A DNA stretch of 64,000 bases from assembly GCF_022770205.1 (NCBI RefSeq), contig NZ_JALEIK010000038.1:101816-165815 (forward strand). Direction: 5' to 3'. A model generated the notes under the pieces. It was given only the letters and a program-made list of their open reading frames with translations. It ran no database searches and was not told the origin of the DNA. Shown here piece by piece: positions 1 through 56,639 of this stretch; position 1 is the first letter of the stretch, and each line of letters opens with the position of its first letter. The DNA is from Helicobacter sp. Its GTDB lineage: Bacteria > Campylobacterota > Campylobacteria > Campylobacterales > Helicobacteraceae. A program made the position numbers and the translations under genes.

Positions 1-74
1 TTTGCTGACTAAAAAACTCTTTGAAAATAGCAATGCCTATGAGATTTTAGAGAGCGAGAAATCCCAAAGCGTTT

Positions 75-575
75 ATGAATACGCCTTGCAAAATGCATAA
101 AGTTTTGATTGTGCCAAATGTTTCTAGGGAGCCTGTTTTAGTGGGTGTTTATGATGCAAATTTTAAGCTGTATAAAGATTTTGTTTTAACCGCCCCTTTA
201 AGTGATGCTCTAGTGCCTAAGTTTATGGAGTTAGAAAAACAAGGTATAGAGTTTGATGCGTTATATTTTGTAAGGGGACCTGGGAGTTTTATGGCATTAA
301 AATTACTCTATCTTTTTGCTAAAACCTTAGAGATTGCAAAAGGGGTGAAGCTCTTTGCCACACACGCATTTTATTTTAATGCAAATTCTCCGATTAAGGC
401 TTATGGGAATTGTTATTTTGTGCGTGAAAATACAGAAAATAATGCAGAGGATGGAATCTGTGTGAAAAATTTTGCTACGATTCCACATATTGCACCCTTT
501 TCTTTGCCAAAGGTTTTAGACATAACTATTTTTGATACAAATCTAAAACCGCTTTATCTATTGCCTCCGGTTTAG
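75..575 (+). CDS. TsaB-like (glycoprotease M22 family) tRNA threonylcarbamoylation protein
   Basis: GPGSFM motif typical of TsaB/YeaZ; short epsilonproteobacterial form. Confidence 0.65.
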   Translation: MNTPCKMHKVLIVPNVSREPVLVGVYDANFKLYKDFVLTAPLSDALVPKFMELEKQGIEFDALYFVRGPGSFMALKLLYLFAKTLEIAKGVKLFATHAFYFNANSPIKAYGNCYFVRENTENNAEDGICVKNFATIPHIAPFSLPKVLDITIFDTNLKPLYLLPPV

Positions 576-597
576 GATGTGATGAAAAGGTTCAAGT

Positions 598-2328: not shown

Positions 2329-2348
2329 ATGCGTTTTAAGGAGAGAAA

Positions 2349-3722
2349 ATGGCTAGAGTAATAGCAAAACAAAATAAAGTTGGAATCGTAATTCCTGTGT
2401 ATAACACGCCTTTAGAGTATTTTAGGGAATGTCTTGAAGGGGCGTTAAATCAAGATTATAGAGATTTAGAGATTTTAATTGTTCACGATGGGGATTATAC
2501 GCCTTGTGTGGAAGTTTCACTAGAATATGCTAGTAGAGATCCACGCATTACTGTGATTGTAAAGCCTATTAATGAAGGTGTGTCTATTGCTAGAAATATA
2601 GGGATTGATTATTTTAGCGGGGCGTTAGAATACAGAGAAAATAAGGAAATGCAAGTGGAGTTTGGGGGGGGGGCGTTTATTGCCTTTAGTGTGAAAAACG
2701 CAAATCCTTATGCTATTGGAGTCATTTATAAGAGCAAAGCAGCATTGATTAAAGCAAAAAAGCTCACTCCTTTAAAAATTGATTACATTTATTTTTTAGA
2801 TTCTGATGATGTGTGCCATAAGGATTTAGTCAGTAGCTGTTTAAAGCACGCTAAGGGGGCAAGCCTTGTGTGGTTTAGTTTTGATAAAATCACTGAGAGT
2901 GGGGCGGAGCATTTAGGGGAGCATATTAATGATTTGGATATTTTAAGCACCTCTAGAATGATTACCCCGCAAGATTGGCTCTCTCACGGGAAGGAAGTGG
3001 GCTATGGTAGTGCAATTTTTGTGTGGCAAGTGTTTATTGATTTTAAGTTTTTAAAGGAATCTAAATTGCGCTTTTTAAACCAAGTGATGCGAGAGGATAA
3101 TCTTTTTGGAGTTTGCTTATTGTTAGAGTGCAAGAAAATGTATGCCCTTTCAGAAAAGCTTATTGATTATCGTGTGCGCACAAATGGTGAAACAAATTTT
3201 GCAATTGATACAGATAAGGTGTTTTTGCCCGGATTTTTGCGCCCGCTTTTTGAAGCCTTTGGTGGAGATTTGCTTTTAACAAAGCATTTTTATGTGGCAC
3301 TTAGTTGGTTTATCCAAAAGCTTTATTTCTTAGACTTTATCCAAAAACACACCGATAAGCAAAATCTTAATGTGATTGCTGGGGGTATGCTCAATAGATT
3401 CCAAAATGAGAGTATGAAATTTATCCATTTACGATTCCAACTTGACACGGATTATTATTTTAATATTTGTTTTAATATTTTTTTAAGCTATATCGCAGCG
3501 TTGCCAAACTATGATCCCTATTATCGCCCTTTTGATAAGCTAGCAGAATACATTATGCCAAATACAAACTCACAACAAGAAACAATCCGTCTTATGAAAG
3601 AAGTGTTAATGTGTGAGAATACAATTATTGTGGATAAAAATAAAATGATTGAAGATCTTACAGAGCGTGTTAGGGAGTTGGAATCTCAAAACACAGAATT
3701 AAAAGCGAAGCTAAAAAAGTAA
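2349..3722 (+). CDS. Glycosyltransferase family 2 with internal poly-G tract and C-terminal coiled coil
   Basis: IVIPVYN, NEGVSIARNIG, FLDSDD (DxD), EDNLF motifs; G10 at 2664-2673, in frame. Confidence 0.9.
   Translation: MARVIAKQNKVGIVIPVYNTPLEYFRECLEGALNQDYRDLEILIVHDGDYTPCVEVSLEYASRDPRITVIVKPINEGVSIARNIGIDYFSGALEYRENKEMQVEFGGGAFIAFSVKNANPYAIGVIYKSKAALIKAKKLTPLKIDYIYFLDSDDVCHKDLVSSCLKHAKGASLVWFSFDKITESGAEHLGEHINDLDILSTSRMITPQDWLSHGKEVGYGSAIFVWQVFIDFKFLKESKLRFLNQVMREDNLFGVCLLLECKKMYALSEKLIDYRVRTNGETNFAIDTDKVFLPGFLRPLFEAFGGDLLLTKHFYVALSWFIQKLYFLDFIQKHTDKQNLNVIAGGMLNRFQNESMKFIHLRFQLDTDYYFNICFNIFLSYIAALPNYDPYYRPFDKLAEYIMPNTNSQQETIRLMKEVLMCENTIIVDKNKMIEDLTERVRELESQNTELKAKLKK
2664..2673 (+). repeat. 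Poly-G10 contingency tract in GT2 (ON state)
   Basis: tttGGGGGGGGGGcg read directly. Confidence 0.9.
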
Positions 3723-3736
3723 AATAAAGGAGAAAA

Positions 3737-4684
3737 ATGGCACAGATCGGACATAATTTTGGACTTGTAGCAAATTGGATAATACAAAGTGATTTTGTTA
3801 GAGAAATGTTAGAGGATTCTAAATATTTAGAAAAGCTTGTGATTCTAACACAGGGTTTAGACAAAGAGAGTATTACGACAATTTATAGGGTGCTATCGCG
3901 CTTAAAACAAGCAGTGTGTAATGGGCAAAATATCACGCAACTTAATGCTGAGGAAATTACTATGTTAAATCGCATTCACACCGAGTTTTATCCCAATATT
4001 TTTGAAATTGCACCTAATGCATTGTATTATTATGATGGGTATTATCTTCCTATCCCCGCATTTCACGAATCTGTATTTTGGTATCGTTTAGGTTTAAGTG
4101 AGCGGGGGGGGGGGGCAATTTTTGATTTAAAAGCTTTGCAAGATAAAGACATCATTGATGTTGGGGCATACATTGGTGATAGTGCGCTTATTTTGCAAGA
4201 ATATACGAGGAAAAAAGTGTATGCCTTTGAGGCGGTAAAGTCAAATTATCAAACAATGCTACAAACAATAAAGTTGAATGCTTGCAAACGCATTGTTCCG
4301 ATTAATAAAGGCTTAGGTGCTAAAAATAGTGTGGAGAAAATCTCCACACAAGGTGCTGGCTCTAGCATTGTGCTACCTAATAATAATCTTTTTGAGGAAG
4401 TGGAGATTATTCCGCTAGATTCCTATGTGAAAGAAAAAAAGTTAAAAATTGGGTTTATCAAAGTGGATATTGAAGGCTTTGAGCAGGAGTTTTTAAAAGG
4501 CGCAAAAGAAACCATTATGAAGCAAAAACCCGCAATGTTAATTAGTCTATACCATAAATACAGCGATTTTTTTGATATAAAACCTATGATTGACTCGTGG
4601 AATCTAGGCTATAAATTTAAGGTGGTAAAACCGATTGATCATAATGTAAGCGGTGAGACGGCATTGTATTGTGAAGTGCGTTAA
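3737..4684 (+). CDS. FkbM family SAM-dependent methyltransferase with poly-G tract
   Basis: IIDVGAYIGDS, YAFE, FIKVDIEGFE, KPAMLISLYH motifs; G12 at 4104-4115, in frame. Confidence 0.9.
   Translation: MAQIGHNFGLVANWIIQSDFVREMLEDSKYLEKLVILTQGLDKESITTIYRVLSRLKQAVCNGQNITQLNAEEITMLNRIHTEFYPNIFEIAPNALYYYDGYYLPIPAFHESVFWYRLGLSERGGGAIFDLKALQDKDIIDVGAYIGDSALILQEYTRKKVYAFEAVKSNYQTMLQTIKLNACKRIVPINKGLGAKNSVEKISTQGAGSSIVLPNNNLFEEVEIIPLDSYVKEKKLKIGFIKVDIEGFEQEFLKGAKETIMKQKPAMLISLYHKYSDFFDIKPMIDSWNLGYKFKVVKPIDHNVSGETALYCEVR
4104..4115 (+). repeat. Poly-G12 contingency tract in FkbM gene (ON state)
   Basis: agcGGGGGGGGGGGGcaa read directly. Confidence 0.9.
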
Positions 4685-4768
4685 AATAGCTAAAAATTTT
4701 GTCAATTTTTATAGGATTTACCATAAAATGCGGTAGAATCTTAATTTATTTTTAAAATAGGCGGTGCG

Positions 4769-6093
4769 ATGACAAGATTTTCTAAAGTGGGATTTATATT
4801 ATCTATTGCTGGAAGTGCGATAGGACTTGGTGGAATTTGGGGATTTCCCTATTTAGTTGGACAAAATGGTGGCTTTGCCTTTGTGCTTGTGTTTGTGCTA
4901 GCATTCTTAGTCTTTGGTGTGAGTGTGTTCATTGTAGAAATGCTTTTTGGTAGAGCAAGCGGGCAAAATACATTAAGCACTTTTGAGTCCTTTGCGCCAA
5001 AGCGATTGGGATTCCTAAAATACGGCGGATTTATGATGATTTCTGGCGTGTTGATTTTTGCGTTCTATGCAGTGGTTTTAGGCTGGCTTGTGCATTATAT
5101 GTTTTTAAGTCTTTTTGGAATGCCAACAACGCTAGAAGACGCAAAAAGCCTGTGGGGCAACTTCGCATCAAGTCAAATTCTGTGGCAGATGTTGTGGCAT
5201 TTTGTCATTGTAGTGTGCTTTGTGCATACATTCTAAATCGTGGTGTAAAAGCTGGAATTGAGAAGTTAAATTTAATTTTGATGCCCTTGCTATTGCTGAT
5301 TTTTCTAGGGCTTTTAGTGTATTCTGTGATGCAAGAAGCATTTTGGGATTCCTTTAAATTTTTATTCCAACCTGATTTTAGTAAAATCACTTCTGATGTG
5401 ATTATAAAAGCAATTGGGCAAGCATTTTTTATGCTTTCTTTAGGTTGTGGAGTGATTTTAACTTATTCTAATTCTATGCCAAAACAAGGCAACTTTGTGG
5501 GTTTTGCAGTCATTGTTGCATTGCTTAACTTTTTTTGTTTGATTGCTGGGCTTGTGGTTTTTACCTTTATTTTTGGTTATGGAGCAGAGCCAACAGAAGG
5601 TCCAGGGCTTGTGTTTGTGTCCTTGCCGCTAGTTTTTGCAAATCTAGGTGTTAGCGGACAAGTGATTGCCTTTTTGTTTTTTGTGGCATTGATTTTTGCT
5701 GGGATTACTTCAGCAGTTTCTATGCTAGAGCCTTTAAATAGTTGTTTGATAGAACGCTTTAAGTTAAAAAGGCGTAATGCAAATCTTATTAGCGTGTTTT
5801 GTGCGTATTTTTTAGGTGTGATTGTGCTACTTAGCAATACAGCGATATTTTCAGCGGATTTAACCTTTTTTGGCAGGAATCTTTTTGACTGGTTTGTGTA
5901 TATCACAAGTTCTTTTATGCTTCCACTTGCTGGTGTGTTTATGTGCATTTATATGGGTTGGATTTTACCAAAAGAGCGTGTGTATGCGATGAGTGAAAGG
6001 CATTTAAAAGGAATCTATTTTGAAGTTTGGTATTTTGTGATTCGCTTTGTTGCGCCTATTGGAATCTTGGTGGCAATGGTTAGCTTGATTTAG
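4769..6093 (+). pseudogene. Sodium-dependent SNF/NSS family transporter split by a 1-nt frameshift near 5210-5218
   Basis: N-half GSAIGLGGIWGFPY and C-half GVKAGIEK...GQAFFMLSLG...EGPGLVF lie in different frames; one base restores continuity. Confidence 0.75.
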
Positions 6094-6100
6094 TCTTACT

Positions 6101-6535
6101 ATGGATTTTTTGGGCACTTTAGGATTATTGGGATTATTTTTAGTTTGTTTTTTGGCAAGCAGTCTTTATCCGCTAGGTTCTGAAGTTTTTGTGCTTGGGT
6201 TTTTGGCTTTAGATTATGCTTGGGTTTTGGTGTGGATTGTCGCAACGCTTGGAAATACATTGGGGGCATTAACCACTTATGGGATTGGATATTTAGGTGA
6301 TTCCTATTGTTTAAGGCATTTTAAGCAGATGCACGCAAAAGTGTATCGCTATAAGAGCGGAATCCAAAACTATGGATTCCTTTATGCGTTTTTCACTTTT
6401 TTGCCGATTTTGGGAGATATATTTGCCCTAGCTTTAGGGGTGTATCGCTATTCTTTTGTGAAAGCCTTTGTTTTTATCGCCCTAGGGAAGGGCGTGCGGT
6501 ATTTAGTGTTAATTGCGTTTTTTAGCTACCGATGA
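6101..6535 (+). CDS. YqaA/DedA family membrane protein
   Basis: FLASSLYPLGSE, GNTLG, LPILGD, GKGVRY motifs. Confidence 0.85.
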   Translation: MDFLGTLGLLGLFLVCFLASSLYPLGSEVFVLGFLALDYAWVLVWIVATLGNTLGALTTYGIGYLGDSYCLRHFKQMHAKVYRYKSGIQNYGFLYAFFTFLPILGDIFALALGVYRYSFVKAFVFIALGKGVRYLVLIAFFSYR

Positions 6536-8318
6536 TTCCACCATCTTTTTTTGTGATTTGCACAATTGTGCTTCTAGGTGTGGAGTTTCCACCATTTGGA
6601 TAGTGACTTGGTGCTAGTCTTTCGCCGGGATGCTGAATACCAACAAACATTGTTTTATAGTCTGGTGAAAAGGCAAGTCCTGTAACTTCTGAAGCAATAG
6701 GACCAGTTAAGAAGCGTTTGATTTCTCCTGTAACTGGGTTTGCACAAAGCATTTGATTATTTCCCATCCCTTCATAATCCCCTTTGTTAGAATAACTGCC
6801 ATCTGTTTGAATCCAAAGGCGTCCAAACTTATCAAATTTCAATCCATCAGGAGAGTTAAACATATTGTCTTTTGTAATGTTGCTTGTGCCTTTGCGTAAG
6901 TCATTAGGGTATTGCGCAGGGTTTCCAGCAAGCAAGAAAATGTCCCACTTAAAATCTGCATTGGAATGATTGTTCTTGCTAGGATTCCAACGGATAATAT
7001 GCCCATACACATTTTTTTCTCTAGGGTTTGCAACACTTGATTCTTCGCGCTTTTTGTTGTTTGTTAGCGTTGCATAAATAAACTCTCCCTTAGGGTCAGC
7101 AGCAATCCACTCTGGGCGATCCATTGGTGTTGCACCAACAATGCTACCTGCAAGTCTTGCATTAATTAAGATGTCTGCTTGAGAGTGGAATCCATTTTTA
7201 GAATCTAATCCATTTTTGCCATAGCTTAATTCAATCCATTTCCCACTACCGCTTAAATCATTGCCTTGAAGTTTTGCAACATAAAGCGTTCCTTCTTCTA
7301 AAAGATTCCTATTGTTTCTAGGATTATTTTTATCAAATTTTCCTTTTGAAACAAATTTATATAAAAACTCATTTGCTTCATCATCGCCCATATAGGCAAC
7401 AACATTGCCTTCTTTGCTAATCACAATCTCTACATTTTCGTGCTTGAAGCGTCCAAGTGCTGTGCGTTTAATTGGTGTGGAGTTTGCATCGTAAGGATCA
7501 ATTTCAACAACCCAGCCAAAGCGGTTTGGTTCATTAGGATTTTTAGCAATATCAAATCTAGGATCTAGTTCCCAGCCATAATTGCTTTTTGTGCTTAGTC
7601 CGTAGCGTTTTTCGCTTGGATTAAAGTTATAGTTAGGGTTGCTACTGCCAAAATAGCTATCAAAATTTTCTTCACAGGTGAGATAAGTTCCCCAAGGAGT
7701 TTGTCCATTTGCGCAGTTATTGATTGTGCCAAGTGCAAGTTCACCTTTTTTGTCTGCTTGTGTTTGCATACTTTTGTGCCCTTTTGCAGGACCGCTAATT
7801 TGCATAGGAGTGTGTGCTGTGATTCTGCGGTTGTAGGGAGAATCTAAAACAACTTTAAAGCCATCTCCATCCCTTTTGATTTCAAAAACACTTACGCCCA
7901 TAGCGTTTTGCTCATAAGCAACTTTTTGAGAGTCTATATTTTTGCCATTATCATTAAAGATTAACTCTGGATTAATGTATTCGTTATTAACCGCTAAAAT
8001 TGCACGATTTTCGTCAATAGGAAATAAAGACATTCCATCAGTGTTATCTCCAAAAACCTTTGCAGCATTTAAAACAGAGTTTTGGTTAATGGTTTTGCTC
8101 TCATCAAAAGGCGTTGCATTGCTAAAAAGCGGATCTCCAAAGCTAATAAGAGGTTTCACTTCATAGCCTTCTGGAACGATAACTGAATCTTCAGTGCTGA
8201 TTGGAATTGCCTTAAAGCCTAGCAAATTTTGCTCTTTTGCATTCAAAGGGGATAGCCCAAAAAAGCCAACATAAGAGAGTGCAAGAGAACTTGCCTTTAA
8301 AAAACTGCGTCTTTGCAT
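6522..8318 (-). CDS. phoX: PhoX family alkaline phosphatase, Tat-exported
   Basis: Twin-arginine signal MQRRSFLK; NCANG.TPWGTYLTCEEN, GRFKHE, MDRPE, SPDGL, IQHPG. Confidence 0.92.
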   Translation of the reverse strand: MQRRSFLKASSLALSYVGFFGLSPLNAKEQNLLGFKAIPISTEDSVIVPEGYEVKPLISFGDPLFSNATPFDESKTINQNSVLNAAKVFGDNTDGMSLFPIDENRAILAVNNEYINPELIFNDNGKNIDSQKVAYEQNAMGVSVFEIKRDGDGFKVVLDSPYNRRITAHTPMQISGPAKGHKSMQTQADKKGELALGTINNCANGQTPWGTYLTCEENFDSYFGSSNPNYNFNPSEKRYGLSTKSNYGWELDPRFDIAKNPNEPNRFGWVVEIDPYDANSTPIKRTALGRFKHENVEIVISKEGNVVAYMGDDEANEFLYKFVSKGKFDKNNPRNNRNLLEEGTLYVAKLQGNDLSGSGKWIELSYGKNGLDSKNGFHSQADILINARLAGSIVGATPMDRPEWIAADPKGEFIYATLTNNKKREESSVANPREKNVYGHIIRWNPSKNNHSNADFKWDIFLLAGNPAQYPNDLRKGTSNITKDNMFNSPDGLKFDKFGRLWIQTDGSYSNKGDYEGMGNNQMLCANPVTGEIKRFLTGPIASEVTGLAFSPDYKTMFVGIQHPGERLAPSHYPNGGNSTPRSTIVQITKKDGGIIGS

Positions 8319-9827: not shown

Positions 9828-9902
9828 TCCGGATTAGCTCAGCGGTAGAGTAGGCGGCTGTTAACCGCTTGGTCGTAGGTTCGAATCCTACATCCGGAGC
9901 CA
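9828..9902 (+). tRNA. tRNA-Asn (GTT)
   Basis: TCCGGAT..AGCTCAG D-arm, anticodon loop CTGTTAA, GGTTCGAATCC T-arm, encoded CCA. Confidence 0.97.
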
Positions 9903-27130: not shown

Positions 27131-27501
27131 TGGTGGAGCTGTGGGGAATCAAACCCCAGTCCAAAATCTAAATCAACAATAACCGATTTACATGCTTATT
27201 TGGGTTTAAAAATCTTTCTTTATCTAAAAAACTCCCAAAAATTTTTAAACAAAGGCAGTCAAAATCTTAACCTTATGTTTGACAGCACAAGGCGCATCTA
27301 GCTTGAATGATGTCCTTAGAAAATCGCTAGAATCCTAACTAAGAACAGCTCCAAAAGTTAGTTAAACCTACGCAACTTTAGCGTAAGCTGGAGCGTAATT
27401 TGCATTGTTTGCGTTTATATTTAAGAGCTAGTTTTGCGACTTAGCACAAGTCGGCATGCAGTTAGAGCCATCTAAATCCTGTCGAAATTCTAATCAGCCC
27501 C
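27131..27501 (-). ncRNA. ssrA: tmRNA; tag peptide (A)ANNANYAPAYAKVA
   Basis: 5' GGGGCTGATTAGAATTTCGACAGG; 3' CAGCTCCACCA; tag ORF 27412-27368. Confidence 0.96.
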
Positions 27502-42931: not shown

Positions 42932-43383
42932 TGACACTTTCTCCAAATTTAGAAGAAAAAATTAAAGTTTTAGTGGAAAGCTTAGGCTTTGAACTCTATG
43001 ATATTTTAACCCTTAAAGAAAATGAAAACCAAATTTTGCGCATTTGCATCACAAAAAATATGGAATCCAAAAGTATAAAACTCGATGATTGCCAAGAAGT
43101 AAGCCTTGCACTCTCGCCCTTGCTTGATGTGGAAATGCCAGATTTTGAGAAGTATTATTTAGAAGTGAGTTCTCCGGGCATTGAGCGTGTTTTAAAAACC
43201 TTAGAGCATTATAAGGGCGCAATTGACGCGCTTGTAAAAGTTAAAACATTCCAAGAAATTGAAGGCAAAAAGGAATTTAAGGGCAGATTAGTAAGCGTAG
43301 ATGAAAGCGTGCTTGTGTTAGAAAGTGGGGCAAAGATTCCATTAAATGCGATAAAAAAGGCACAAACTTACTTTGAGTGGTGA
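42931..43383 (+). CDS. rimP: Ribosome maturation factor
   Basis: LDDCQEVS, YYLEVSSPGIERVL. Confidence 0.93.
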   Translation: MTLSPNLEEKIKVLVESLGFELYDILTLKENENQILRICITKNMESKSIKLDDCQEVSLALSPLLDVEMPDFEKYYLEVSSPGIERVLKTLEHYKGAIDALVKVKTFQEIEGKKEFKGRLVSVDESVLVLESGAKIPLNAIKKAQTYFEW

Positions 43384-44468
43384 TGATGCTAACACACGCT
43401 TTTTATTTGGATTTATGCTTGCAATGTGCTTGGAAGGAGCAATTAAAAACGCTTCCAAACCCAGCTGTTGCGGCTCTTGTGCTAGATAAAAATGGGATGA
43501 TTTTAAGCTTAGAATCGCATAAAGAATGTGGCAAACCCCACGCTGAAGTGCTAGCCTTGCAAAAAGCCTATGCAGCCCTAAGTGGCAATAATGCGATTCT
43601 ATCCTTGAAAGATTCTGAAGCAATCCATTCCTATCTTTTAAAAAATGCGATTCCAACTTTTAAAGACATAACACTTTATGTTACCCTAGAGCCTTGCAGT
43701 AGTAATAAGAAGGGAAAAACTCCATCGTGTGCAGCATTGTTAAAAGCCTTAAAGCCAAAATGTGTGGTCATAGGAGCGCAAGATTGTAATGAGAGTGCAA
43801 AAGGCGGTGCACAGGAACTTTTGGATTCTGGAATTATCGTGCTAAAGGCTTGGGAAGTGGAATCCTTACAGGAATGCCACCAAAAGGCAAAGGCTCTTTT
43901 GCTGCCCTTTAGAGCCTTGCAAACACAGGGTAAATTTATGCTTTTTAAATATGCAAGCAGGCTTGATGGTAGCATTGATGGGGGGCAGATTAGCACAAAG
44001 GGAGCGCAAAGTTTGATGCACGACTATCGCACAAAGGCAGATGTGTTGCTGATTTCTGGGGAGAGTGTGCGTGCGGATAATCCGCGCCTTGATACGCGCT
44101 TTGCCACTTTAGCGCAAAGGAATCCTAATGTTGCCATTCTAACGCACCAAAAAGATTTTCCAAAAACTGCGCCTTTATTTACGATTCCAAATCGCAAAGT
44201 AGAGATTTTGCATTCCCTAGAGCAGGTGGAATCCTTGCGTGGTTTTATTTTTTGTGAAGGGGGAGCTAGGTTTTTTAACGCTCTACAAAATTTTATAGAT
44301 TTAGTGCTTGTGATTTTAAATCCAAGTTTGAAAAAGGATTCCAATCTTAGAATGTCATTAGATGCAAGCTTTCACTTGCTCCATAGCGCACAAATTGCTG
44401 AAGATATTTTTCTATGGCTCGCAAAAAATAAATTTATTTTTTGGGATATAACGAAGCGTGCCAAATAG
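43377..44468 (+). CDS. ribD: Riboflavin biosynthesis deaminase/reductase
   Basis: PNPAVAA, HAE, VTLEPC...GKTPSC, DNPRL, EGG; exact start uncertain. Confidence 0.93.
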   Translation: MVMMLTHAFYLDLCLQCAWKEQLKTLPNPAVAALVLDKNGMILSLESHKECGKPHAEVLALQKAYAALSGNNAILSLKDSEAIHSYLLKNAIPTFKDITLYVTLEPCSSNKKGKTPSCAALLKALKPKCVVIGAQDCNESAKGGAQELLDSGIIVLKAWEVESLQECHQKAKALLLPFRALQTQGKFMLFKYASRLDGSIDGGQISTKGAQSLMHDYRTKADVLLISGESVRADNPRLDTRFATLAQRNPNVAILTHQKDFPKTAPLFTIPNRKVEILHSLEQVESLRGFIFCEGGARFFNALQNFIDLVLVILNPSLKKDSNLRMSLDASFHLLHSAQIAEDIFLWLAKNKFIFWDITKRAK

Positions 44469-44643
44469 AGAATCCTACAAGTGCAACGCCCGCTGTTATA
44501 TGGATTGTCTTTGCGGTTTTATTCTTTAAAAATAATGCACTTCCAGCTGTTAGTAATAAGCTTACGCTCATACCTATTTTTGCAATCTCGCGCTTTGTTT
44601 CAACAGAGGCTTTATTGGATTGAATTTCTAACTCTTTTTCCAT
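44434..44643 (-). CDS. Small two-TM protein with His pair, last gene of fez-like operon
   Basis: SD AGGAG; two hydrophobic helices; HITAGVALVGFSIWH. Confidence 0.7.
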   Translation of the reverse strand: MEKELEIQSNKASVETKREIAKIGMSVSLLLTAGSALFLKNKTAKTIHITAGVALVGFSIWHASLYPKK

Positions 44644-44658
44644 ATTTTCTCCTATTTT

Positions 44659-44763
44659 TTATTTTCTTTTAGAATATTTTTTGTATTTTAAAAATGCTTG
44701 TCTTGCCATTTGCGCTGCTAAAAATCCACTTCCAGCAGTTGCTAAAATTAGTAAGAATGGCAT
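44659..44763 (-). CDS. 34-aa membrane peptide MPFLLILATAGSGFLAAQMARQAFLKYKKYSKRK, not in ORF track
   Basis: Translated by hand; SD AAGGAG overlaps the ATPase stop (TAAGGAG); fills the gap between two operon genes. Confidence 0.7.
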   Translation of the reverse strand: MPFLLILATAGSGFLAAQMARQAFLKYKKYSKRK

Positions 44764-44776
44764 AAAACTTTACTCC

Positions 44777-46876
44777 TTATCTTATACGGATTCTTTGGAG
44801 TGCATTTAAAAGCAGTCCAATAGTTGTGCCATTGTGCATAAATGCTGTTTGGATGGGGCTTAATTTTCCAAGTGTTGCCAAAATTAAAATCATAGAATTC
44901 ACACCCACTGTAATTTTAAACCCTCTTTGTACCTTTTTAAGACACGCAAGCGCAAGCTCTCTAGCTTCTGCTACCGCTTCAATATCATCACGCAATAGCA
45001 CCACATCTGCACTTGCCTTTGCGATGTCTGCACCCTTGTGCATACCAATGCCAATGTCTGCACGGATTAACGCTGGAGCATCGTTGATGCCATCGCCTAC
45101 AAAAGCTACTTTTTTTCCCTCTTGCATAATTTGTTCTAAAATCTCTGCCTTTTGTGTGGGTAATAATTCTGCATAATAACGATTAATTCCCAACTCTTTA
45201 GCGATTTTATCTGCTTTTTGTTGTGTGTCGCCTGTTAGCATAATGATTTCCTTAATGCCACTTTTGCGCAAGCGTTCTAATGCTGTTTTTGCATTTTCTC
45301 TTAGAGAATCTTTGAGTAAAATCATACCTAAAAGCTCTTTATCATAGCCGATAAAAAGGGGCATTTCACCACTTTCTAAAATTGTTTCAATTGCTTGGTT
45401 TTGTGCCTTAAAGCTAATCCCTTCATCATCTTCTAAAAAATGTCTTGAGCCAATTATTACACTTTTGCCATTAATCTCACTTTTTACTCCGTGCGCAACA
45501 ATAAAAGTTACTTCATCGTGATGAAAATGTTTAAAATCTTTGTCTTTTGCGGCTTTTACAACTGCTTGTGCAACAGGATGAAAATAATGCTCTTCAATGC
45601 TAGCAGCAAGATTTAATACTGCATCTTTATCCCAGTCGTTGTGGAATGAATACACATCAAGCACTTTTAAATCTCCTTGTGTGAGTGTGCCTGTTTTATC
45701 AAAAATAAACACTTCACTAAGTTGTAAAGATTCTAAACTTTTTGCACCCTTGATAATGATTCCTTCTTTTCCCGCACTTGAGATTGCAGATTTAAAGGTT
45801 ACAGGCGTAGTAAGCTTTAAAGCGCAAGAATAGTCCGCCTGCAACACGCCAGCACTGCGCATTAAATCGCGTGTTAAAACATAAGAGAGTGCGGCAAGTC
45901 CCAAAGTAATAGGCACTAAGGAATCTGCCATTTTAGACGCATTGAGCTCTTGAGAGGATTTTTGCACTAAAGTCTCTTCAATGTAGCTTTTAATTCGCGC
46001 TGTTGCTGTTTCTTCTCCTACCGATTCTGCCCATACTTTGATTTTTCCTTCTTGCACAATTGTGCCAGAAAGCACCCTATCGCTATGCTTCTTTTGCACA
46101 GGAGTTGCTTCTCCTGTCATAGAGATTTGATTTACAAGTGCTTCTCCCTCAATAATATGTCCATCAACTAAAATCGTATCGCCTGCACCAATGACAACAA
46201 TATCGCTAACTTTCAACTCTTCACTTGGAATCTGTTTTAAAACACTTTTGCCTTCTTCTATGTATTCAACCCAAGCTAAACCGCTCTTTTGCTTTGCTAA
46301 CTCTTTAATTAAATCATCGCTTTTATACATTGTCATTTCTTCAATGTATTCGCCAAGTGCTAGCATAAAATTTGTAGAGTTTGCTGTTTTAAAGTCTTTT
46401 AAACACAAAGAAATTGCAACTGCCATTGCTTCTAGAGAACGGGAATTGATTCCGTGCGTAAAGGTTTCTTTTAATCCGCTAAAGAGCAAAGGAGCAGATG
46501 CAACAAGAGAGAATCCAAGTTGTGCTGTGGTGTTATTTAATAAAGGAGAGAACAATAACGCACTCCCAGCGCGCGCCACTTCTGATGAGCTTGGAATCTC
46601 ATCACGCAGTGCAAGATAACTTTCATCGTGTTTGATGGAATTTGATTCTACCGCAACGCTATCAAGGGCTTTATGGACATTTTGTTTTAGGGTTTCTAAA
46701 TCTCCACAATATTGCAAAATGATATTGTTTAAAATGGCATTAACACGCACATTACTTACATTTGGTGTTTCTTCTAAAGCCACGCGAAGTTGTATGGGGT
46801 TTACCCTGAAGCTACTTTTGCAAATGTATTTAAAACGCACCCTTTTAGCTGTTGCGTGGAGTAGAATTAATCGCAT
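44777..46876 (-). CDS. fezB: P1B-type heavy-metal ATPase, P1B-6/FezB-like
   Basis: MTGE, DYSCAL (SCA instead of CPC), DKTGTLT, HYFHP, MLTGD, GDGINDAP, HNGTT; N-terminal KRVRF. P1B ATPase is certain; the fezB symbol is inferred. Confidence 0.8.
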   Translation of the reverse strand: MRLILLHATAKRVRFKYICKSSFRVNPIQLRVALEETPNVSNVRVNAILNNIILQYCGDLETLKQNVHKALDSVAVESNSIKHDESYLALRDEIPSSSEVARAGSALLFSPLLNNTTAQLGFSLVASAPLLFSGLKETFTHGINSRSLEAMAVAISLCLKDFKTANSTNFMLALGEYIEEMTMYKSDDLIKELAKQKSGLAWVEYIEEGKSVLKQIPSEELKVSDIVVIGAGDTILVDGHIIEGEALVNQISMTGEATPVQKKHSDRVLSGTIVQEGKIKVWAESVGEETATARIKSYIEETLVQKSSQELNASKMADSLVPITLGLAALSYVLTRDLMRSAGVLQADYSCALKLTTPVTFKSAISSAGKEGIIIKGAKSLESLQLSEVFIFDKTGTLTQGDLKVLDVYSFHNDWDKDAVLNLAASIEEHYFHPVAQAVVKAAKDKDFKHFHHDEVTFIVAHGVKSEINGKSVIIGSRHFLEDDEGISFKAQNQAIETILESGEMPLFIGYDKELLGMILLKDSLRENAKTALERLRKSGIKEIIMLTGDTQQKADKIAKELGINRYYAELLPTQKAEILEQIMQEGKKVAFVGDGINDAPALIRADIGIGMHKGADIAKASADVVLLRDDIEAVAEARELALACLKKVQRGFKITVGVNSMILILATLGKLSPIQTAFMHNGTTIGLLLNALQRIRIR

Positions 46877-46884
46877 TTTCTGCC

Positions 46885-47223
46885 TTAGATTTTATTGGTA
46901 TCGTTAATTTCTGCTTTTGCATCCTCATAGCGCTCTTTTAATTCTTCAATTCCACTTTCAAAGAGACTGCTAATCTTTGCAAAGCCTTTAAAGATTGCTT
47001 TTTGTGCATTTTCATTGGTTAAAATAAAAGTTGCAGCAGTCCCTATGAGTGCACCTTTTATGAAGACTTGCTTAGAATTGTTGGCATCTAGTAAGCCCCC
47101 TAAAAAGTTTTGCGTATTGTTTTGTGTGTTATTTTGAGAATTATTTTCTCCTTGATTTTGCATACTTTGTTCTCCGTTGTTTATATTCTTGATGTAGGGA
47201 TTATTTGGGTTTGGCTGTGTCAT
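46885..47223 (-). CDS. Small GxxxG membrane protein with Q/N-rich N-terminus and C-terminal coiled coil (FezA/YtxH-like)
   Basis: KGALIGTAATF; GIEELKERYEDAKAE. Confidence 0.7.
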   Translation of the reverse strand: MTQPNPNNPYIKNINNGEQSMQNQGENNSQNNTQNNTQNFLGGLLDANNSKQVFIKGALIGTAATFILTNENAQKAIFKGFAKISSLFESGIEELKERYEDAKAEINDTNKI

Positions 47224-47224
47224 A

Positions 47225-47572
47225 TTAGTCCTTTGTTAGAAATTTTGAAGCGGTGCAACAGCTTTTATTAGCGAGTGTTCGGATTCCATACACGCTTGCT
47301 GCTCCAATAGCTACAAATGTAGTGGCTTCAATGATTCCTTGTGCAGTTGATTTGGTATTGCTCCCTAAGGCATTTGCCGCTGCTATTCCACAAGCTGTAA
47401 GGATTCCGCCTTCAACACTTGCTTTTATTGTTTTAGTGATAGCCTCTTGCTTATTAATTTCATTGCGTTTATATTTTGCATACGCACAGGCTCCACTTAA
47501 CATAAATGCGATAAGCCCCCCGCTAATTGCGTGTCCTGTAACAGAACGCGGAGTTCCTGTATTTACTACCAT
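47225..47572 (-). CDS. Small Gly/Ala-rich multi-helix membrane protein
   Basis: GHAISGG, GILTACG, GAASVYG small-residue motifs. Confidence 0.7.
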   Translation of the reverse strand: MVVNTGTPRSVTGHAISGGLIAFMLSGACAYAKYKRNEINKQEAITKTIKASVEGGILTACGIAAANALGSNTKSTAQGIIEATTFVAIGAASVYGIRTLANKSCCTASKFLTKD

Positions 47573-47856
47573 TTGTTATCCTTTATTTTTGTTGTTTTGC
47601 GCGTTATTTGTGTTTTTTGTGCTTGCGGTTCTTCTGTTTTGGATTCTGTATTGAGCGCATTTGCAAGGCTTGTCTTTGCATAGTTTAATGCATTGCTAGA
47701 AATCTCTTTGCCTTTATTAATGCTATTGCTTAAACCTTTTTGAATGTTTTCAGAAAGTTCGCTATTGCTTAATTTTTGCTTGATTTGTTCTCTTTTTGTG
47801 AATAATAGTGCAACTCCTGCACCAACTGCTAATCCTGCAACAAATGGTAATGCCAT
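47566..47856 (-). CDS. Small GxxxG N-anchored protein
   Basis: MALPFVAGLAVGAGVALL followed by a charged helix. Confidence 0.7.
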   Translation of the reverse strand: MALPFVAGLAVGAGVALLFTKREQIKQKLSNSELSENIQKGLSNSINKGKEISSNALNYAKTSLANALNTESKTEEPQAQKTQITRKTTKIKDNKW

Positions 47857-47859
47857 AAT

Positions 47860-48462
47860 TTACTCCTTATTCTTTTGATTTAAAAGTTCATTAAAAATAA
47901 TGACGCCAAAAGCACCTGCAATGACGCCACCCATTAATGAATAGTTTAATTTACCTAAAAAGCCTTCTAGCTGTTCTTGTGTAAGATTTCCCTCCTTTAG
48001 CCTTGTAACCATCTCGCCTGTTTCATTTAAAAGTTCTTTGCCATTATTGAGTATGTCCATCATATTCATCGCATTGTCTTGCGCATATTGAGAAAGTGCA
48101 TTTTGTAATGCTGGGATATGATTGTTAAAGCTTGCAGCTTGCAAACGATAAAATACATCTAAAACATCTAAATCTTGTTCATTGGTAATTAAATTATTAT
48201 ACAGCGCAATGTTTGCATTCTCATACATAAGCGCAGTTTGTAGTGCTTCTACTTTATTGTTTGGAGGCATAATTGCATTAAAGTAGGGATTGTTAGGAAT
48301 GGGGGTATTTAACTTTTGAAGTTGATAGGTCAATGCGCTGATGTGTGCAGCCTCTGCATTCTGAAGATTTACAAAAATCTCACCTAATGGGCTTGCTGAC
48401 ATATAAAAACTATACGACTTATATTCATCGTCTAATGCTAATAATAAATTCTCTGCACTCAT
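47860..48462 (-). CDS. Ferritin-like (DUF2202-type) protein with C-terminal GxxxG TM anchor
   Basis: DDEYK..SFY, AEAAH, YENAN, SFNNH; LMGGVIAGAFG; true start ATG 48462 overlaps upstream TGA. Confidence 0.8.
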   Translation of the reverse strand: MSAENLLLALDDEYKSYSFYMSASPLGEIFVNLQNAEAAHISALTYQLQKLNTPIPNNPYFNAIMPPNNKVEALQTALMYENANIALYNNLITNEQDLDVLDVFYRLQAASFNNHIPALQNALSQYAQDNAMNMMDILNNGKELLNETGEMVTRLKEGNLTQEQLEGFLGKLNYSLMGGVIAGAFGVIIFNELLNQKNKE

Positions 48463-48824
48463 ACAACCTCCCTTAAATTTTGATTGATAATCCTTGCGAT
48501 TTCTTCTAATGATTCTCCATTTATGCAATCTTCCCAAAGTTTGGGGCTTAACAAGTTGGAATCGTAATGGATTGTAAGAGAGCCAACTAAAGGATTGAAT
48601 TTAATAGAAAGAATCAAAGGAATCTTTTTTAATATTTCTAAAAGTGCCTTTGGATTAATCTTATTTTCCTGTGCAGCAGTTTTTAACTTTAAACTTGCTC
48701 TAAGACGGATTCTACCTTTTGTGTGATGCACAATTGAAAAATAATCTTTTAAAAACTGCAAATCATCAGATTTTATTTCCAAGTCTCTTAAGGTATCAAG
48801 CAATTTTGCTTTGTCGTCTCCCAT
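48459..48824 (-). CDS. HMA2-like domain protein (FezC-like), first gene of operon
   Basis: HHTKGRIRLR and IKFNPLVGSLTIHYD; start set at ATG 48824. Confidence 0.75.
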   Translation of the reverse strand: MGDDKAKLLDTLRDLEIKSDDLQFLKDYFSIVHHTKGRIRLRASLKLKTAAQENKINPKALLEILKKIPLILSIKFNPLVGSLTIHYDSNLLSPKLWEDCINGESLEEIARIINQNLREVV

Positions 48825-48992
48825 AAAAATCCACTTAAAATAAATTTGTCGCAAATTTTAGAATAAAGGTTATAAAATTTTTCTTAATAAAAAAATAATG
48901 GGATTTAATAAAAATAAAAACACCTTTATATTCAATGGATTCTAAGGGTATAAAATTCTCTAAAAATTAAAAAATAAGAATCAAAAATAAAG

Positions 48993-53422: not shown

Positions 53423-54802
53423 TTATAGTCCCATTTTTCCCGGATTTAAAATATTGTTTGGATCAAAGGCTTGTTTAATGGAACGGAATAATTGCATCTC
53501 TTCTTGTGAAAATGCTAGATGCATAAAAGGTGCTTTAGATAATCCGATTCCGTGTTCTCCACTAAGCGTTCCACCAAGTTCTACCGTGATTTCAAAAATC
53601 TCTTCAATTGCCTTATGTCCTTTTTCTAATTCCTGTGGATTTGTGCCATCTACCATCACATTTGTATGCACATTTCCATCACCAGTATGCCCAAAACACG
53701 GAATCACAACGCCATACTTTTTAGATACTGCAGCTATTCTTTCTAAAAGCTCTGGAAGTTTTGCGCGCGGCACAGTGATGTCTTCATTTATTTTTTTACT
53801 TCCATAAATAGTGATGCTAGGACTTGCATTTTTGCGCGCAAACCATAAATCTGCTGCTTCTTGCTCGTTGTTTGCTTTAATAAAATCTATTGCACCATTT
53901 TCGCGGAATTTTTCCTCCACCTTACTTAATTGATAGGCAATCTCTTCTTGCAAGTTGCCATCAACTTCGGTGATTAAAATTGCTCCTGCGTCCTTTGGCA
54001 AGCCTTTATTGAATTTCTCTTCTACTGCTCTAATGCTAAGATTGTCTAAAAATTCCATTGCAACAGGAGTAACTCCGCTTGCCATTGTTTTATACACTGC
54101 ATTCATTGCTGATTGTATGCTAGGAAATATACCCATTGCGCTTTGTCTGTGCTTTGGTTTGCTAAGAAGTTTGAGTGTGATCTCTGTGATCACTCCAAGA
54201 GTGCCTTCGCTTGCAATAAGGATTCCAGCAATATTATATCCCGCCACATCTTTAATTGTCTTTTTGCCTGCACGGATTACATCTCCATTTGGGAGAACAG
54301 CCCGTAGAGCCATCACATAATCTTTTGTGATTCCGTATTTTGCAGCACGCATTCCTCCAGCATTCTCACTGACATTTCCGCCAAGTGTAGAGTAATGCTC
54401 ACTTGCAGGATCTGGCGGGTAAAACAATCCTACAGCTTCCACTGCCTTTTGAAGTTGCATATTTACAACTCCGGGTTGGACGCGTGCTACCATATTTTCC
54501 ATATCAATTTCTAAGATTTGATTCATATGCTTTTCTAGTGCTAGCACAACACCACCATTAACAGCTAGTGAGCCTCCTGTAAAGCCACTTCCTGCACCGC
54601 GTGGAATGATTGGGATTAAATGTGTGTTGCAATATTTTAAAATAGCACTCACTTCTTCTTCGTTATGCGGAAATACTACACATTCTGGATATTTACGCTC
54701 TTTTGTAGCATCGTAGCAATATGCACTTAAATGCGCTTTATCGCTAAAACATTCATTCTTGCCAACAATAGCTTCAAGATCCTTGATGTTTTGATGAGTC
54801 AT
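53423..54802 (-). CDS. glcD: FAD-linked oxidase, GlcD family
   Basis: [38 protein letters not shown]. Confidence 0.85.
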
Positions 54803-55653
54803 CTTGCGCCTTTAGAAAATATTTTAATTTGATTTGTGAAATACTTTGTAACACGCCCAAAAAATGTTGCATCTTCATCACTAATGTCGCCTTTTAAAAG
54901 TGCATCAAAATACAAATAATAATCGCGCGTTGTTACATTATTGATTAAGTAGGTAAACCAGTTTTGGTTGTCAATTCCAATGCGCGAGAAAAAAGGTAGC
55001 ATTCTTTCATCAACTGGTGCGCGCCCTGTAATGTAGTCTTTTTTTATGGCTATAAAAGTTTGGCAATCTAATGCTTGCCCTTCATTAAGATTGACTAAAT
55101 ACACAATTCCAGCAGCATATTGCGTGCAAACTTTACGAAAATCTCCCTTTACGGGTGAAGTGTGTCCAACATCCATTAAATATGCTGCTAGCAAATCTGG
55201 GTGTAACCAAGTAACATCGGGATATGCTGCCTGAATTTTTTCATAGATTTCTTGAGAAGGAGCTACCAAAAATGCGCGATCATTAAAAGAGCGAAAAATC
55301 ACTTCATCACCCTTCTTGGGAAAAAGGATTGGTGCTGGAAAAGCCCCTTGTTCTAAGCCTTCAAATGGTTCAAAGGCTATTTTTGCGCGTGCATCTTTAA
55401 TTTCTACAACTGCAGCCCTAGCGACAATTGTTGAATGTTCTTTTGTAAACCAACGCACAATCTCACCACTCTCGCCAACTTTCAAATCAAACGCTGGAAC
55501 ATAGGCGTAATGTTTGGGATCTTTATCTAATTCCACAATGGGAACAATTAATTTATTGCCAAAAGGAGAAGCATAGGACAAAATGCTAAAAAGCGCAATC
55601 AATAAAGAATATTTTAAGAAGTCTTGAAAGGAATTTAAAAATTTCATAAGCAA
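54799..55653 (-). CDS. Exported protein, plasminogen-binding N-terminal domain-like
   Basis: Signal peptide; HSTIVARA, P.P.KGDEVIF, HPDL.AAYL, LDC.TF motifs recalled from this epsilonproteobacterial family. Confidence 0.6.
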   Translation of the reverse strand: MLMKFLNSFQDFLKYSLLIALFSILSYASPFGNKLIVPIVELDKDPKHYAYVPAFDLKVGESGEIVRWFTKEHSTIVARAAVVEIKDARAKIAFEPFEGLEQGAFPAPILFPKKGDEVIFRSFNDRAFLVAPSQEIYEKIQAAYPDVTWLHPDLLAAYLMDVGHTSPVKGDFRKVCTQYAAGIVYLVNLNEGQALDCQTFIAIKKDYITGRAPVDERMLPFFSRIGIDNQNWFTYLINNVTTRDYYLYFDALLKGDISDEDATFFGRVTKYFTNQIKIFSKGAR

Positions 55654-56465: not shown

Positions 56466-56543
56466 GCCAAGGTAGCTCAGCTGGTTTAGAGCGCTGGTCT
56501 CATAAGCCGGAGGTCGGGGGTTCGAGTCCCCCCTTTGGTACCA
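56466..56543 (+). tRNA. tRNA-Met/Ile2 (CAT anticodon, non-initiator)
   Basis: GCCAAGG/CTTTGGT acceptor, loop CTCATAA, GGGGG-TTCGAGT-CCCCC, CCA. Confidence 0.92.
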
Positions 56544-56562: not shown

Positions 56563-56639
56563 GCGCTCATAGCTCAGCTGGATAGAGCAACGGCCTTCTA
56601 AGCCGTAGGTCAGAGGTTCGAATCCTCTTGGGCGTACCA
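56563..56639 (+). tRNA. tRNA-Arg (TCT)
   Basis: GCGCTCA acceptor, loop CTTCTAA, GGTTCGAATCC, CCA. Confidence 0.96.

Follow-up and report, generated by a model that had tools for sequence, protein, structure and literature searches.

An eight-gene operon of a pig-gut Helicobacter as a probable ferrosome (fez) cluster built around a P1B-6 ATPase

Ferrosomes are a recently recognised bacterial organelle, demonstrated in a handful of species. Their formation requires fez gene clusters in D. magneticus, S. putrefaciens and R. palustris, and the S. putrefaciens cluster is sufficient in E. coli. FezB, the P1B-6 ATPase of such clusters, is defined by the motifs D[Y/F]SCA and HNxxT and by an N-terminal RxR motif that replaces the classical metal-binding domain (Grant & Komeili). 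In C. difficile, ferrosomes depend on FezA and FezB, which are repressed by Fur and aid colonisation (Pi et al. 2023); the mineral is a vivianite-like Fe(II) phosphate (X-ray absorption spectroscopy preprint, 2026), and loss of fezB leads to lower, not higher, cellular iron. The tables of Grant & Komeili place FezB also in H. winghamensis (HWAG_01149), H. rodentium (BS85_01621), H. macacae (HMPREF2086_01095) and Wolinella succinogenes, as well as in several Campylobacter, Arcobacter and Sulfurospirillum; all of these Campylobacterota proteins carry DYSCALK and HNGTT, with motifs such as HATSKRARFKYV. A 2025 review asks which further gut pathogens or commensals have ferrosomes. The locus described here is a fezB gene, together with the operon around it, in a 64,000-nucleotide stretch of DNA from Helicobacter sp. 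(assembly GCF_022770205.1, contig NZ_JALEIK010000038.1, positions 101,816 to 165,815), referred to below as the window.

The window carries a complete, tightly packed operon of eight genes (44434..48824, minus strand), of which the original prediction had covered fezB alone. The analysis of the window establishes which genes these are, their motifs, their arrangement as an operon, their conservation and purifying selection and, as a trace, their transcription. The reading favoured here, with a probability of about three in four, is that this unit is a complete fez (ferrosome) operon of the Campylobacterota type, belonging to an enterohepatic Helicobacter of the pig gut, and that its FezB loads Fe(II).

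The fezB gene is a single intact open reading frame (ORF) with an ATG start. Its product scores 470.3 bits against the NCBIfam profile TIGR01525 (cut-off 346.25), which identifies it as a heavy-metal P1B ATPase, and is matched by both the E1-E2_ATPase and the HAD Hydrolase families of Pfam. All catalytic motifs are intact: TGE254, FDKTGT with D393, HP433, TGD548 and GDGINDAP at residues 594-601. The fourth transmembrane (TM) helix, TM4, contains DYSCAL at 348-353 (DYSCALK to K354), while TM6 contains MHNGTT at 680-685, with HNGTT at H681-T685. When phmmer aligns the protein with A. fulgidus CopA, ADYSCAL falls on VACPCAF column for column, so that Y-S-C stands in place of C-P-C, with the second cysteine kept and the proline lost. 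Residues 7-15 read HATAKRVRF and include H7-x4-R12-x-R14; as C19 and C57 are the only cysteines within residues 1-100, there is no CxxC. Every string quoted in the original prediction (DYSCAL for CPC, HNGTT in the last TM helix, intact DKTGT and GDGxNDAP, and HATAKRVRF instead of CxxC at the N-terminus) is present in this ORF. Its phrase 'R-rich N-terminal domain' holds for the short RxR (R12-V-R14) within an HMA_2-like beta-alpha domain, and fails as a description of composition, the domain not being arginine-rich overall; in the literature, 'R-rich' is the name of the short RxR motif.

The signature residues are highly conserved. Alignment of the window FezB with 45 homologs, drawn from two divergent clades and 42-92% identical, shows H7, R12, R14, D348, C351, A352, L353, K354, H681, N682 and T685 to be invariant. 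N660 in TM5 is invariant as well, and is spaced from H681 by 20 residues, compared with the published N-X18-HNx(S/T) of CtpC. Also invariant in the 46 sequences are the stretch EEHYFHP (residues 428-434) and H450/H453 in the nucleotide-binding domain (window ~45518..45595, minus strand); the stretch contains more histidines than the usual P1B 'HP' motif.

A HMMER search of 1.84 billion representatives yielded 13,031 proteins at E<=1e-30, and motifs were surveyed in the best 150 representatives at 50% identity. Among these 150, ranks 1 to ~98 almost all have D[YF]SCA, HNxxT and H-x4-RxR; by a simple pattern count, D[YF]SCA and HNxxT occur together in 85 and all three signatures in 76. Below ~345 bits follow sister groups with ACPCA/HNxST (CtpC-like) or D[YF]GTG/SNGSA, in which the R-rich N-terminus is retained; the D[YF]GTG/SNGSA clade possibly corresponds to the 'FezH' type. 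This ranking assigns the window protein to the P1B-6 core. Since all three published signatures are present, the gene is identified from its sequence as fezB, encoding a P1B-6 ATPase. The comparison of TM segments with P1B subclass signatures that had been proposed as a check places the protein among the SCA/HNxxT sequences, not with the CPC or GTG sisters. That SCA with HNxxT is the P1B-6 signature tied to iron genes agrees with Grant & Komeili, and SCA is named as the motif of P1B-6 in a 2026 review. The sister clades are found among representatives P0339-P0390, of which P0350 is a protein of 1706 amino acids with five matched stretches.

An AlphaFold2 model of FezB, built on the homolog alignment (mean predicted local distance difference test score 77.9, predicted template modelling score 0.58), interrupts TM4 at residues 347-349, precisely at DYS, and places HNGTT within the terminal helix 674-693. 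Residues 1-77 are modelled as a beta-beta-alpha-beta-beta-alpha domain with the RxR on its first hairpin, followed by a disordered linker. Four helices (97-112, 116-141, 145-158 and 162-194) lie between the N-terminal domain and the A-domain; only 116-138 is clearly hydrophobic, which would fit the reduced P1B-6 topology of six TM helices, with an additional amphipathic helix, or a count of eight. Foldseek searches with the model (E 1e-36 to 1e-41, TM-scores 0.5-0.66; phmmer E 1e-54 to 1e-73) matched the structures of known P1B pumps only (CopA, ATP7B, ZntA and sCoaT, at 21-30% identity), indicating that no P1B-6 structure exists. The N-terminal domain is a paralog of the free-standing product of g1, the first gene of the operon: BLASTP aligns the two at E 1e-4, and their H-x3/4-RxR motifs fall in register. 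On its own, the domain matches Pfam HMA_2 weakly (E 0.079); precomputed HMA_2 matches exist for several FezB homologs.

The eight genes of the operon are listed in Table 1. The g1 stop and g2 start overlap in ATGA, and the other gaps measure -7 to 16 nucleotides, with Shine-Dalgarno sequences. Recognition as a fez cluster depends on GxxxG and R-rich motifs, and the operon has GxxxG in g3 (GLAVG), g5 (GALIG) and the C-terminus of g2 (GVIAG) and an R-rich motif in g1 (GRIRLR). The g1 protein passes the Pfam HMA_2 threshold (PF19991, E 1.9e-10, 41.3 bits, cut-off 30), as do its Arcobacter and Azospirillum orthologs, and its motif is kept in 13 orthologs; its group is assigned through HWAG_01154 and RPA2337 of R. 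palustris, which is in the same group.

Table 1. Features of the operon and its promoter region, followed by structural RNA genes of the window. Groups are those of Grant & Komeili; dN/dS, the ratio of nonsynonymous to synonymous substitution rates, was calculated pairwise against three relatives; aa, amino acids; nt, nucleotides.
Feature	Coordinates	Strand	Description	H. winghamensis counterpart (group)	dN/dS
g1	48459..48824	-	121-aa soluble R-rich HMA_2 protein, HHTKGRIRLRA	HWAG_01154 (3-1, R-rich)	0.11-0.15
g2	47860..48462	-	200-aa membrane-anchored ferritin-like protein, C-terminal GGVIAG anchor, NKE end	HWAG_01153 (5)	0.14-0.16
g3	47566..47856	-	96 aa, N-terminal TM helix with GxxxG (PFVAGLAVGAG), Lys-rich tail	HWAG_01152 (2-6, GxxxG; motif PFIAGLAVGAGVAL)	~0.2
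g4	47225..47572	-	115-aa polytopic small membrane protein	HWAG_01151 (4-3)	0.11-0.15
g5	46885..47223	-	112 aa, YtxH-like, GxxxG TM helix KGALIGTAATFIL, amphipathic tail EELKERYEDAKAE	HWAG_01150 (2-1, GxxxG)	0.09-0.11
fezB	44777..46876	-	699-aa P1B-6 ATPase, N-terminal HMA_2-like domain (motifs, profiles, alignment, model)	HWAG_01149 (1-1, FezB)	0.04-0.09
g7	44659..44763	-	34-aa microprotein MPFLLILATAGSGFLAAQMARQAFLKYKKYSKRK, one hydrophobic helix then Lys/Arg tail		0.04-0.21
g8	44434..44643	-	69 aa, two TM helices, conserved His, DUF4405-like	HWAG_01148 (3-3)	0.04-0.13
-10 hexamer TAAAAT (probable)	48855..48860	-	context TTATTCTAAAAT, ~30 nt upstream of g1 ATG		
AT-rich promoter-proximal block	48883..48900	-	CATTATTTTTTTATTAAG, ~35-52 nt upstream of presumed transcription start		
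tmRNA	27131..27501	-	Rfam, 144 bits		
tRNA	9828..9899	+	Rfam		
tRNA	56466..56540	+	Rfam		
tRNA	56563..56636	+	Rfam		

The g2 protein matches Pfam DUF2202 (E 0.0021, 18.3 bits, cut-off 22) and Ferritin_2 (E 0.0053) below threshold; its Arcobacter ortholog, annotated as DUF2202, also stays below threshold at 18.1 bits. A ferritin-like di-iron site is made up of the ligand set E / ExxH / E / ExxH. The conserved part of g2 consists of FYRLQAxSxNxHxP and the C-terminal anchor GGxxxG...NKE, with E81, D102, N114 and H115 invariant. Of the two ExxH elements, the window protein has the first (E37/H40), which the Helicobacter orthologs do not conserve, and lacks the second, where it reads FNNH. The protein can be called 'ferritin-like' only, and not a confirmed DUF2202 ferroxidase.

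The small membrane proteins g3, g4, g5 and g7 match no family significantly in Pfam or NCBIfam. In g3, GLAVG starts at residue 8 within a hydrophobic stretch of residues 1-21, and PFxxGxxxG is kept in 12 orthologs. Hydrophobic stretches and conserved TG..R, SG and N..G positions characterise g4. A match of g4 to the magnetosome protein MamC in NCBIfam (E 0.009, 16 bits, cut-off 100) is non-significant and was rejected; it probably reflects a compositional similarity between small organelle-membrane proteins. The g5 protein has an Asn/Gln-rich N-terminus, GALIG at residue 57 and a highly conserved tail; its orthologs in Arcobacter and Azospirillum are annotated as YtxH by NCBI, with a sub-threshold Pfam YtxH score in the latter (E 1.9e-4, 22.2 bits, cut-off 37.5), and its group is shared by HWAG_01150 and R. 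palustris RPA2334.

The microprotein gene g7 starts with an ATG 14 nucleotides past the fezB stop and has an AAGGAG Shine-Dalgarno sequence 7 nucleotides upstream. All 19 loci that extend over this interval, among them the Arcobacter plasmid CP129951, have an equivalent ORF of 33-45 amino acids after fezB, with a hydrophobic N-terminus, a Lys/Arg-rich tail and a Shine-Dalgarno sequence. It carries no annotation in the Arcobacter record and is not among the entries HWAG_01148-01154 retrieved for H. winghamensis from the tables of Grant & Komeili. Clusters of this type very probably have g7 as a genuine eighth gene. In g8, the pattern KREIAKIGM...H..AG.AL.GFS.WH.SLY is conserved, and the Pfam DUF4405 score is sub-threshold (E 0.0033, 18.4 bits, cut-off 26.7; 17.1 bits for the Arcobacter ortholog); its ortholog HWAG_01148 belongs to the group labelled 'R-rich motif/DUF4405' by Grant & Komeili. 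The 3' end of g8 overlaps the convergent ribD ORF (43377..44468, plus strand) by 35 nucleotides (44434..44468), and a scan found no terminator-like hairpin between the two genes.

The main alternative to a fez operon is a pump of the conventional type that exports Fe(II), or some other divalent metal, across the cytoplasmic membrane on a scaffold platform, in the manner of CtpC/PacL1, and would serve detoxification without any organelle. P1B ATPases normally pump metal outward, and loading of a vesicle lumen is topologically the identical reaction. CtpC of M. tuberculosis, described as 'P1B-6-like', resembles the window FezB in its R-rich N-terminus without CxxC, in HNx(S/T) within the last TM helix and in being co-expressed with small membrane proteins (the PacL1 scaffold), and it exports zinc at the plasma membrane. 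The R-rich ACPCA/HNxST sister clades, moreover, rank just under the FezB core among the best 150 representatives, and the flanks of the operon are free of iron genes. CtpC, however, has CPC in TM4, whereas the window FezB has SCA and groups with the SCA/HNxxT sequences. The accessory genes belong to fez groups rather than to PacL or DUF1490, and they include a ferritin-like gene. Clusters with identical FezB TM motifs produce intracellular granules, even in E. coli, and the drop in cellular iron upon loss of fezB in C. difficile likewise speaks against an exporter. The efflux platform is therefore disfavoured and considered unlikely. The view of the original prediction that the protein loads a compartment rather than detoxifies the cell is that of the published FezB model, is backed by the complete fez-type operon context and is correct as far as the sequence allows a judgement.

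The closest named FezB proteins are from H. turcicus and Helicobacter sp. MIT 11-5569 (92% identity), followed by H. rodentium (82-83%); further relatives occur in H. ganmani, H. apodemus, H. mesocricetorum, H. pullorum, Campylobacter devanensis and C. lanienae (~70%), and near-identical DNA is found in pig-gut metagenomes. The order g1-g2-g3-g4-g5-fezB-(g7)-g8 is kept in 24 Helicobacteraceae loci. As the neighbouring mreC is common to the three closest genomes only, the cluster travels as a unit. The Arcobacter plasmid CP129951 (locus L026) has the same layout as the window operon and adjoins genes for a HipA toxin and an HNH endonuclease, and an alphaproteobacterial variant on the Azospirillum plasmid NZ_CP033321 (locus L025) adjoins an iron ABC transporter and a two-component system. 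These plasmid-borne clusters point to horizontal mobility of the kit. Over all eight genes, dN/dS is 0.04-0.25, compared with 0.13 for mreC, and all genes of the operon are under purifying selection.

These data bear on another explanation, in which the cluster would be a horizontally acquired remnant, silent or non-functional in this microaerophile. Such an origin would account for neighbourhoods that differ among Helicobacter species and for the plasmid-borne copies in Arcobacter and Azospirillum, and a copy in a metagenome-assembled genome (MAG) appears frameshifted. In the window, however, the eight ORFs are all intact, their dN/dS is as low as or below that of mreC, gene order and promoter are conserved across species, the G+C content equals that of the flanks, and metatranscriptome contigs match the operon. 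A non-functional remnant is thus highly improbable. The MAG in question is the closest one (ERR318692_bin.107, locus L012): its fezB match at 6001..8098 spans 2098 nucleotides, not a multiple of three, and tblastn finds one frame from residue ~207 onward only, a probable frameshift or assembly error. A contig of the gut metagenome X1 joins position 45114 of the window to 45675, skipping 560 nucleotides of fezB, with 29 nucleotides on the short side; together with loose ends nearby (45075, 45108 and 45703), this junction points to variation between strains or to a break in the assembly in the region of the P/N-domain.

The operon appears to have a self-contained promoter. A 170-nucleotide AT-rich spacer separates mreC from g1, and a promoter and leader of the form CATTATTTTTTTATTAAG ... 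TTATTCTAAAAT ... AAATTTATTT is common to the nearer relatives, including H. rodentium with its different upstream gene. The -10 hexamer reads TAAAAT or TAGAAT in these relatives; its assignment is by conservation only, because a generic scan for sigma-70 promoters and terminators is uninformative in this AT-rich DNA, its counts being equal to those expected from shuffled sequence. The block CATTATTTTTTTATTAAG is common to the window and to the loci L001, L002, L012 and L022, the last of which has another upstream gene, and is a candidate operator or -35/UP element. In H. pylori, the operators are TAATAATnATTATTA for holo-Fur and TCATTn10TT for apo-Fur, the latter at the ferritin gene pfr; the block agrees with the apo-Fur consensus at only 5-6 of its 7 specified positions. 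Matches to the Fur box with 2-3 mismatches are scattered as AT-rich DNA predicts, and none is conserved in position. Regulation of the operon by Fur may thus be treated as a lead.

Evidence of transcription comes from one pig-gut metatranscriptome, in which two contigs are 100% identical to the window and span the g5/fezB junction (46687..46903) and the g4/g5 junction (47174..47440). The flanking genes are represented there by one 41-nucleotide fragment with four mismatches, inside mreB, and by nothing else; beyond the two short contigs, no RNA-seq of an isolate turned up. The contigs are consistent with co-transcription of the operon in vivo, and the operon is probably transcribed.

The function proposed as most likely is that ATP is spent to load Fe(II) into an iron-phosphate store enclosed by a membrane, since in other bacteria homologous clusters have proved both necessary and sufficient for ferrosomes. 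By analogy with those systems, Fe(II) would be the substrate, FezB would reside in an organelle, the accessory proteins would have the roles given here, and ferrosomes would form in this Helicobacter. The genes g1 to g8 would be transcribed as a single unit from their own promoter. The proteins g3 and g5 (GxxxG/YtxH-like), the polytopic g4, g7 and g8 might be embedded in a compartment that derives from the cytoplasmic membrane, and give it its shape. In the membrane of this compartment, FezB would move Fe(II) from the cytoplasm to the lumen through the P1B cycle of phosphorylation at D393 and dephosphorylation by TGE, with a predicted trans-membrane metal site formed by S350/C351 (TM4), N660 (TM5) and H681/N682/T685 (TM6). 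The HMA_2/RxR domain of FezB and its paralog g1 would be responsible for delivery, regulation or targeting, rather than acting as a CxxC metal chaperone. Fe(II) and phosphate would then precipitate as the ferrosome granule, possibly assisted by the membrane-anchored ferritin-like g2.

A compartment could also be built for a metal other than iron, such as Mn(II), Co(II), Ni(II) or Zn(II), in which case the presence of a ferritin-like protein would be coincidental. Nickel features heavily in the metal economy of Helicobacter, the S/C/H/N/T ligand set would probably fit several borderline divalent ions, and the di-iron site of g2 is degenerate; in addition, the 2026 review calls the metal specificity of P1B-6 ATPases 'poorly understood'. 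Yet all characterised ferrosomes contain iron phosphate, the TM motifs of the window FezB are identical to those of the iron-storing systems of S. putrefaciens and R. palustris, and fez clusters elsewhere are associated with iron genes. Another metal is accordingly improbable.

Several observations weigh against a fez operon loading Fe(II) in this host. Helicobacter is microaerophilic, and ferrosomes have been described mainly in anaerobes. Granules have been demonstrated only in D. magneticus, S. putrefaciens, R. palustris, C. difficile and E. coli with the S. putrefaciens cluster, which include no Helicobacter or other member of the Campylobacterota. Even for C. difficile, a 2026 paper words Fe(II) import by FezB with 'may'. 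The ortholog alignment of g2 reveals no complete di-iron ligand set, which makes a ferroxidase role doubtful and fits a ferrous mineral; the Pfam scores of g2, g3, g5 and g8 are under curated thresholds. No iron-uptake or Fur gene lies within ~10 kb of the operon and no other iron genes within ~15 kb, and the 260 nucleotides upstream of g1 contain no exact Fur operator (TAATAATnATTATTA, 19-bp box) in the window or in 22 further loci. The RNA support consists of two contigs of low depth from a library that may hold DNA carry-over.

The flanks of the operon are housekeeping genes, with infB-rbfA-rimP-ribD on one side and mreC-mreB-clpX-lpxA-fabZ on the other, and share its G+C content. Rfam finds nothing in or near the operon; the tmRNA and the three tRNAs of Table 1 are its only families in the window. 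At 54799..55653 (minus strand), the sequence strongly matches the N-terminal domain of the plasminogen-binding PgbA (PF15436, E 2.6e-75), a Helicobacter surface/host-interaction family; the host of the window is enterohepatic.

A Helicobacter of the pig gut carries a complete, selectively maintained and probably transcribed fez operon, and the kit is also distributed across enterohepatic Helicobacter and Campylobacter and occurs on an Arcobacter plasmid. Cultured carriers such as H. pullorum and H. rodentium constitute a tractable set for the study of ferrosomes outside strict anaerobes. A broader proposal is that microaerophilic enterohepatic Helicobacter, some of them zoonotic, build ferrosomes with a distinct eight-gene kit, including the degenerate ferritin-like g2 and the conserved microprotein, and that these might aid colonisation under iron withholding by the host, as in C. 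difficile; the odds on this proposal are considered even.

Among solved P1B ATPases (CopA, PDB 3RFU/4BBJ/7R0G; ZntA, 4UMV; sCoaT, 7QBZ; ATP7B), the overall fold and the catalytic core are common with FezB. They carry CPC or SPC, whereas the window FezB has YSC(A), and their N-terminal domain is an HMA domain with CxxC, whereas that of FezB is of the HMA_2 type. C. difficile, gut-associated like the host of the window, combines a P1B-6 FezB with a small membrane partner in a minimal system of two genes, compared with eight here. The window has the richer parts list, with a ferritin-like anchor protein, HMA_2 paralogs and a new microprotein. For control by Fur, for storage as Fe(II) phosphate and for a part in colonising the gut, C. 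difficile sets the precedent.

The TM motifs DYSCALK and HNGTT of the window FezB are identical to those of Sputcn32_3193 (S. putrefaciens) and RPA2333 (R. palustris). The protein is ~45% identical to its alpha- and betaproteobacterial counterparts; a homology search seeded from Azospirillum returned many of these FezB proteins, none of them named R. palustris, and the link to R. palustris FezB was made via the published tables. In those tables, the validated R. palustris operon comprises RPA2333 (group 1-1), RPA2334 (2-1), RPA2335 (4-2), RPA2336 (2-5), RPA2337 (3-1) and RPA2338 (3-2). The window cluster is a syntenic variant of RPA2333-2338 that gains the group-5 gene for the membrane-anchored ferritin-like protein and the 34-amino-acid microprotein, and in which the FezC-type gene with R-rich motif and DUF4405 (3-2) is replaced by the DUF4405-only gene (3-3) after fezB.

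The nearest counterpart is H. winghamensis, whose seven annotated genes HWAG_01148-01154 have the same order as in the window and correspond to its groups one to one, with near-identical motifs (HATPKRARFKYI, DFLKGALIGAAATF, PFIAGLAVGAGVAL and SIVHHTKGRIRLRAS). The clusters of H. winghamensis, H. rodentium, H. macacae and Wolinella (WS1569-1576) have been catalogued bioinformatically, and the window represents a different species. The system has already been described in other bacteria and the genus is already included in the catalogue of Grant & Komeili, so that knowledge of the family is unchanged. To these descriptions, the window adds an anatomy of the entire operon with its self-contained promoter, the degenerate site of the ferritin-like protein, the conserved microprotein and evidence for mobility of the kit among Campylobacterota.

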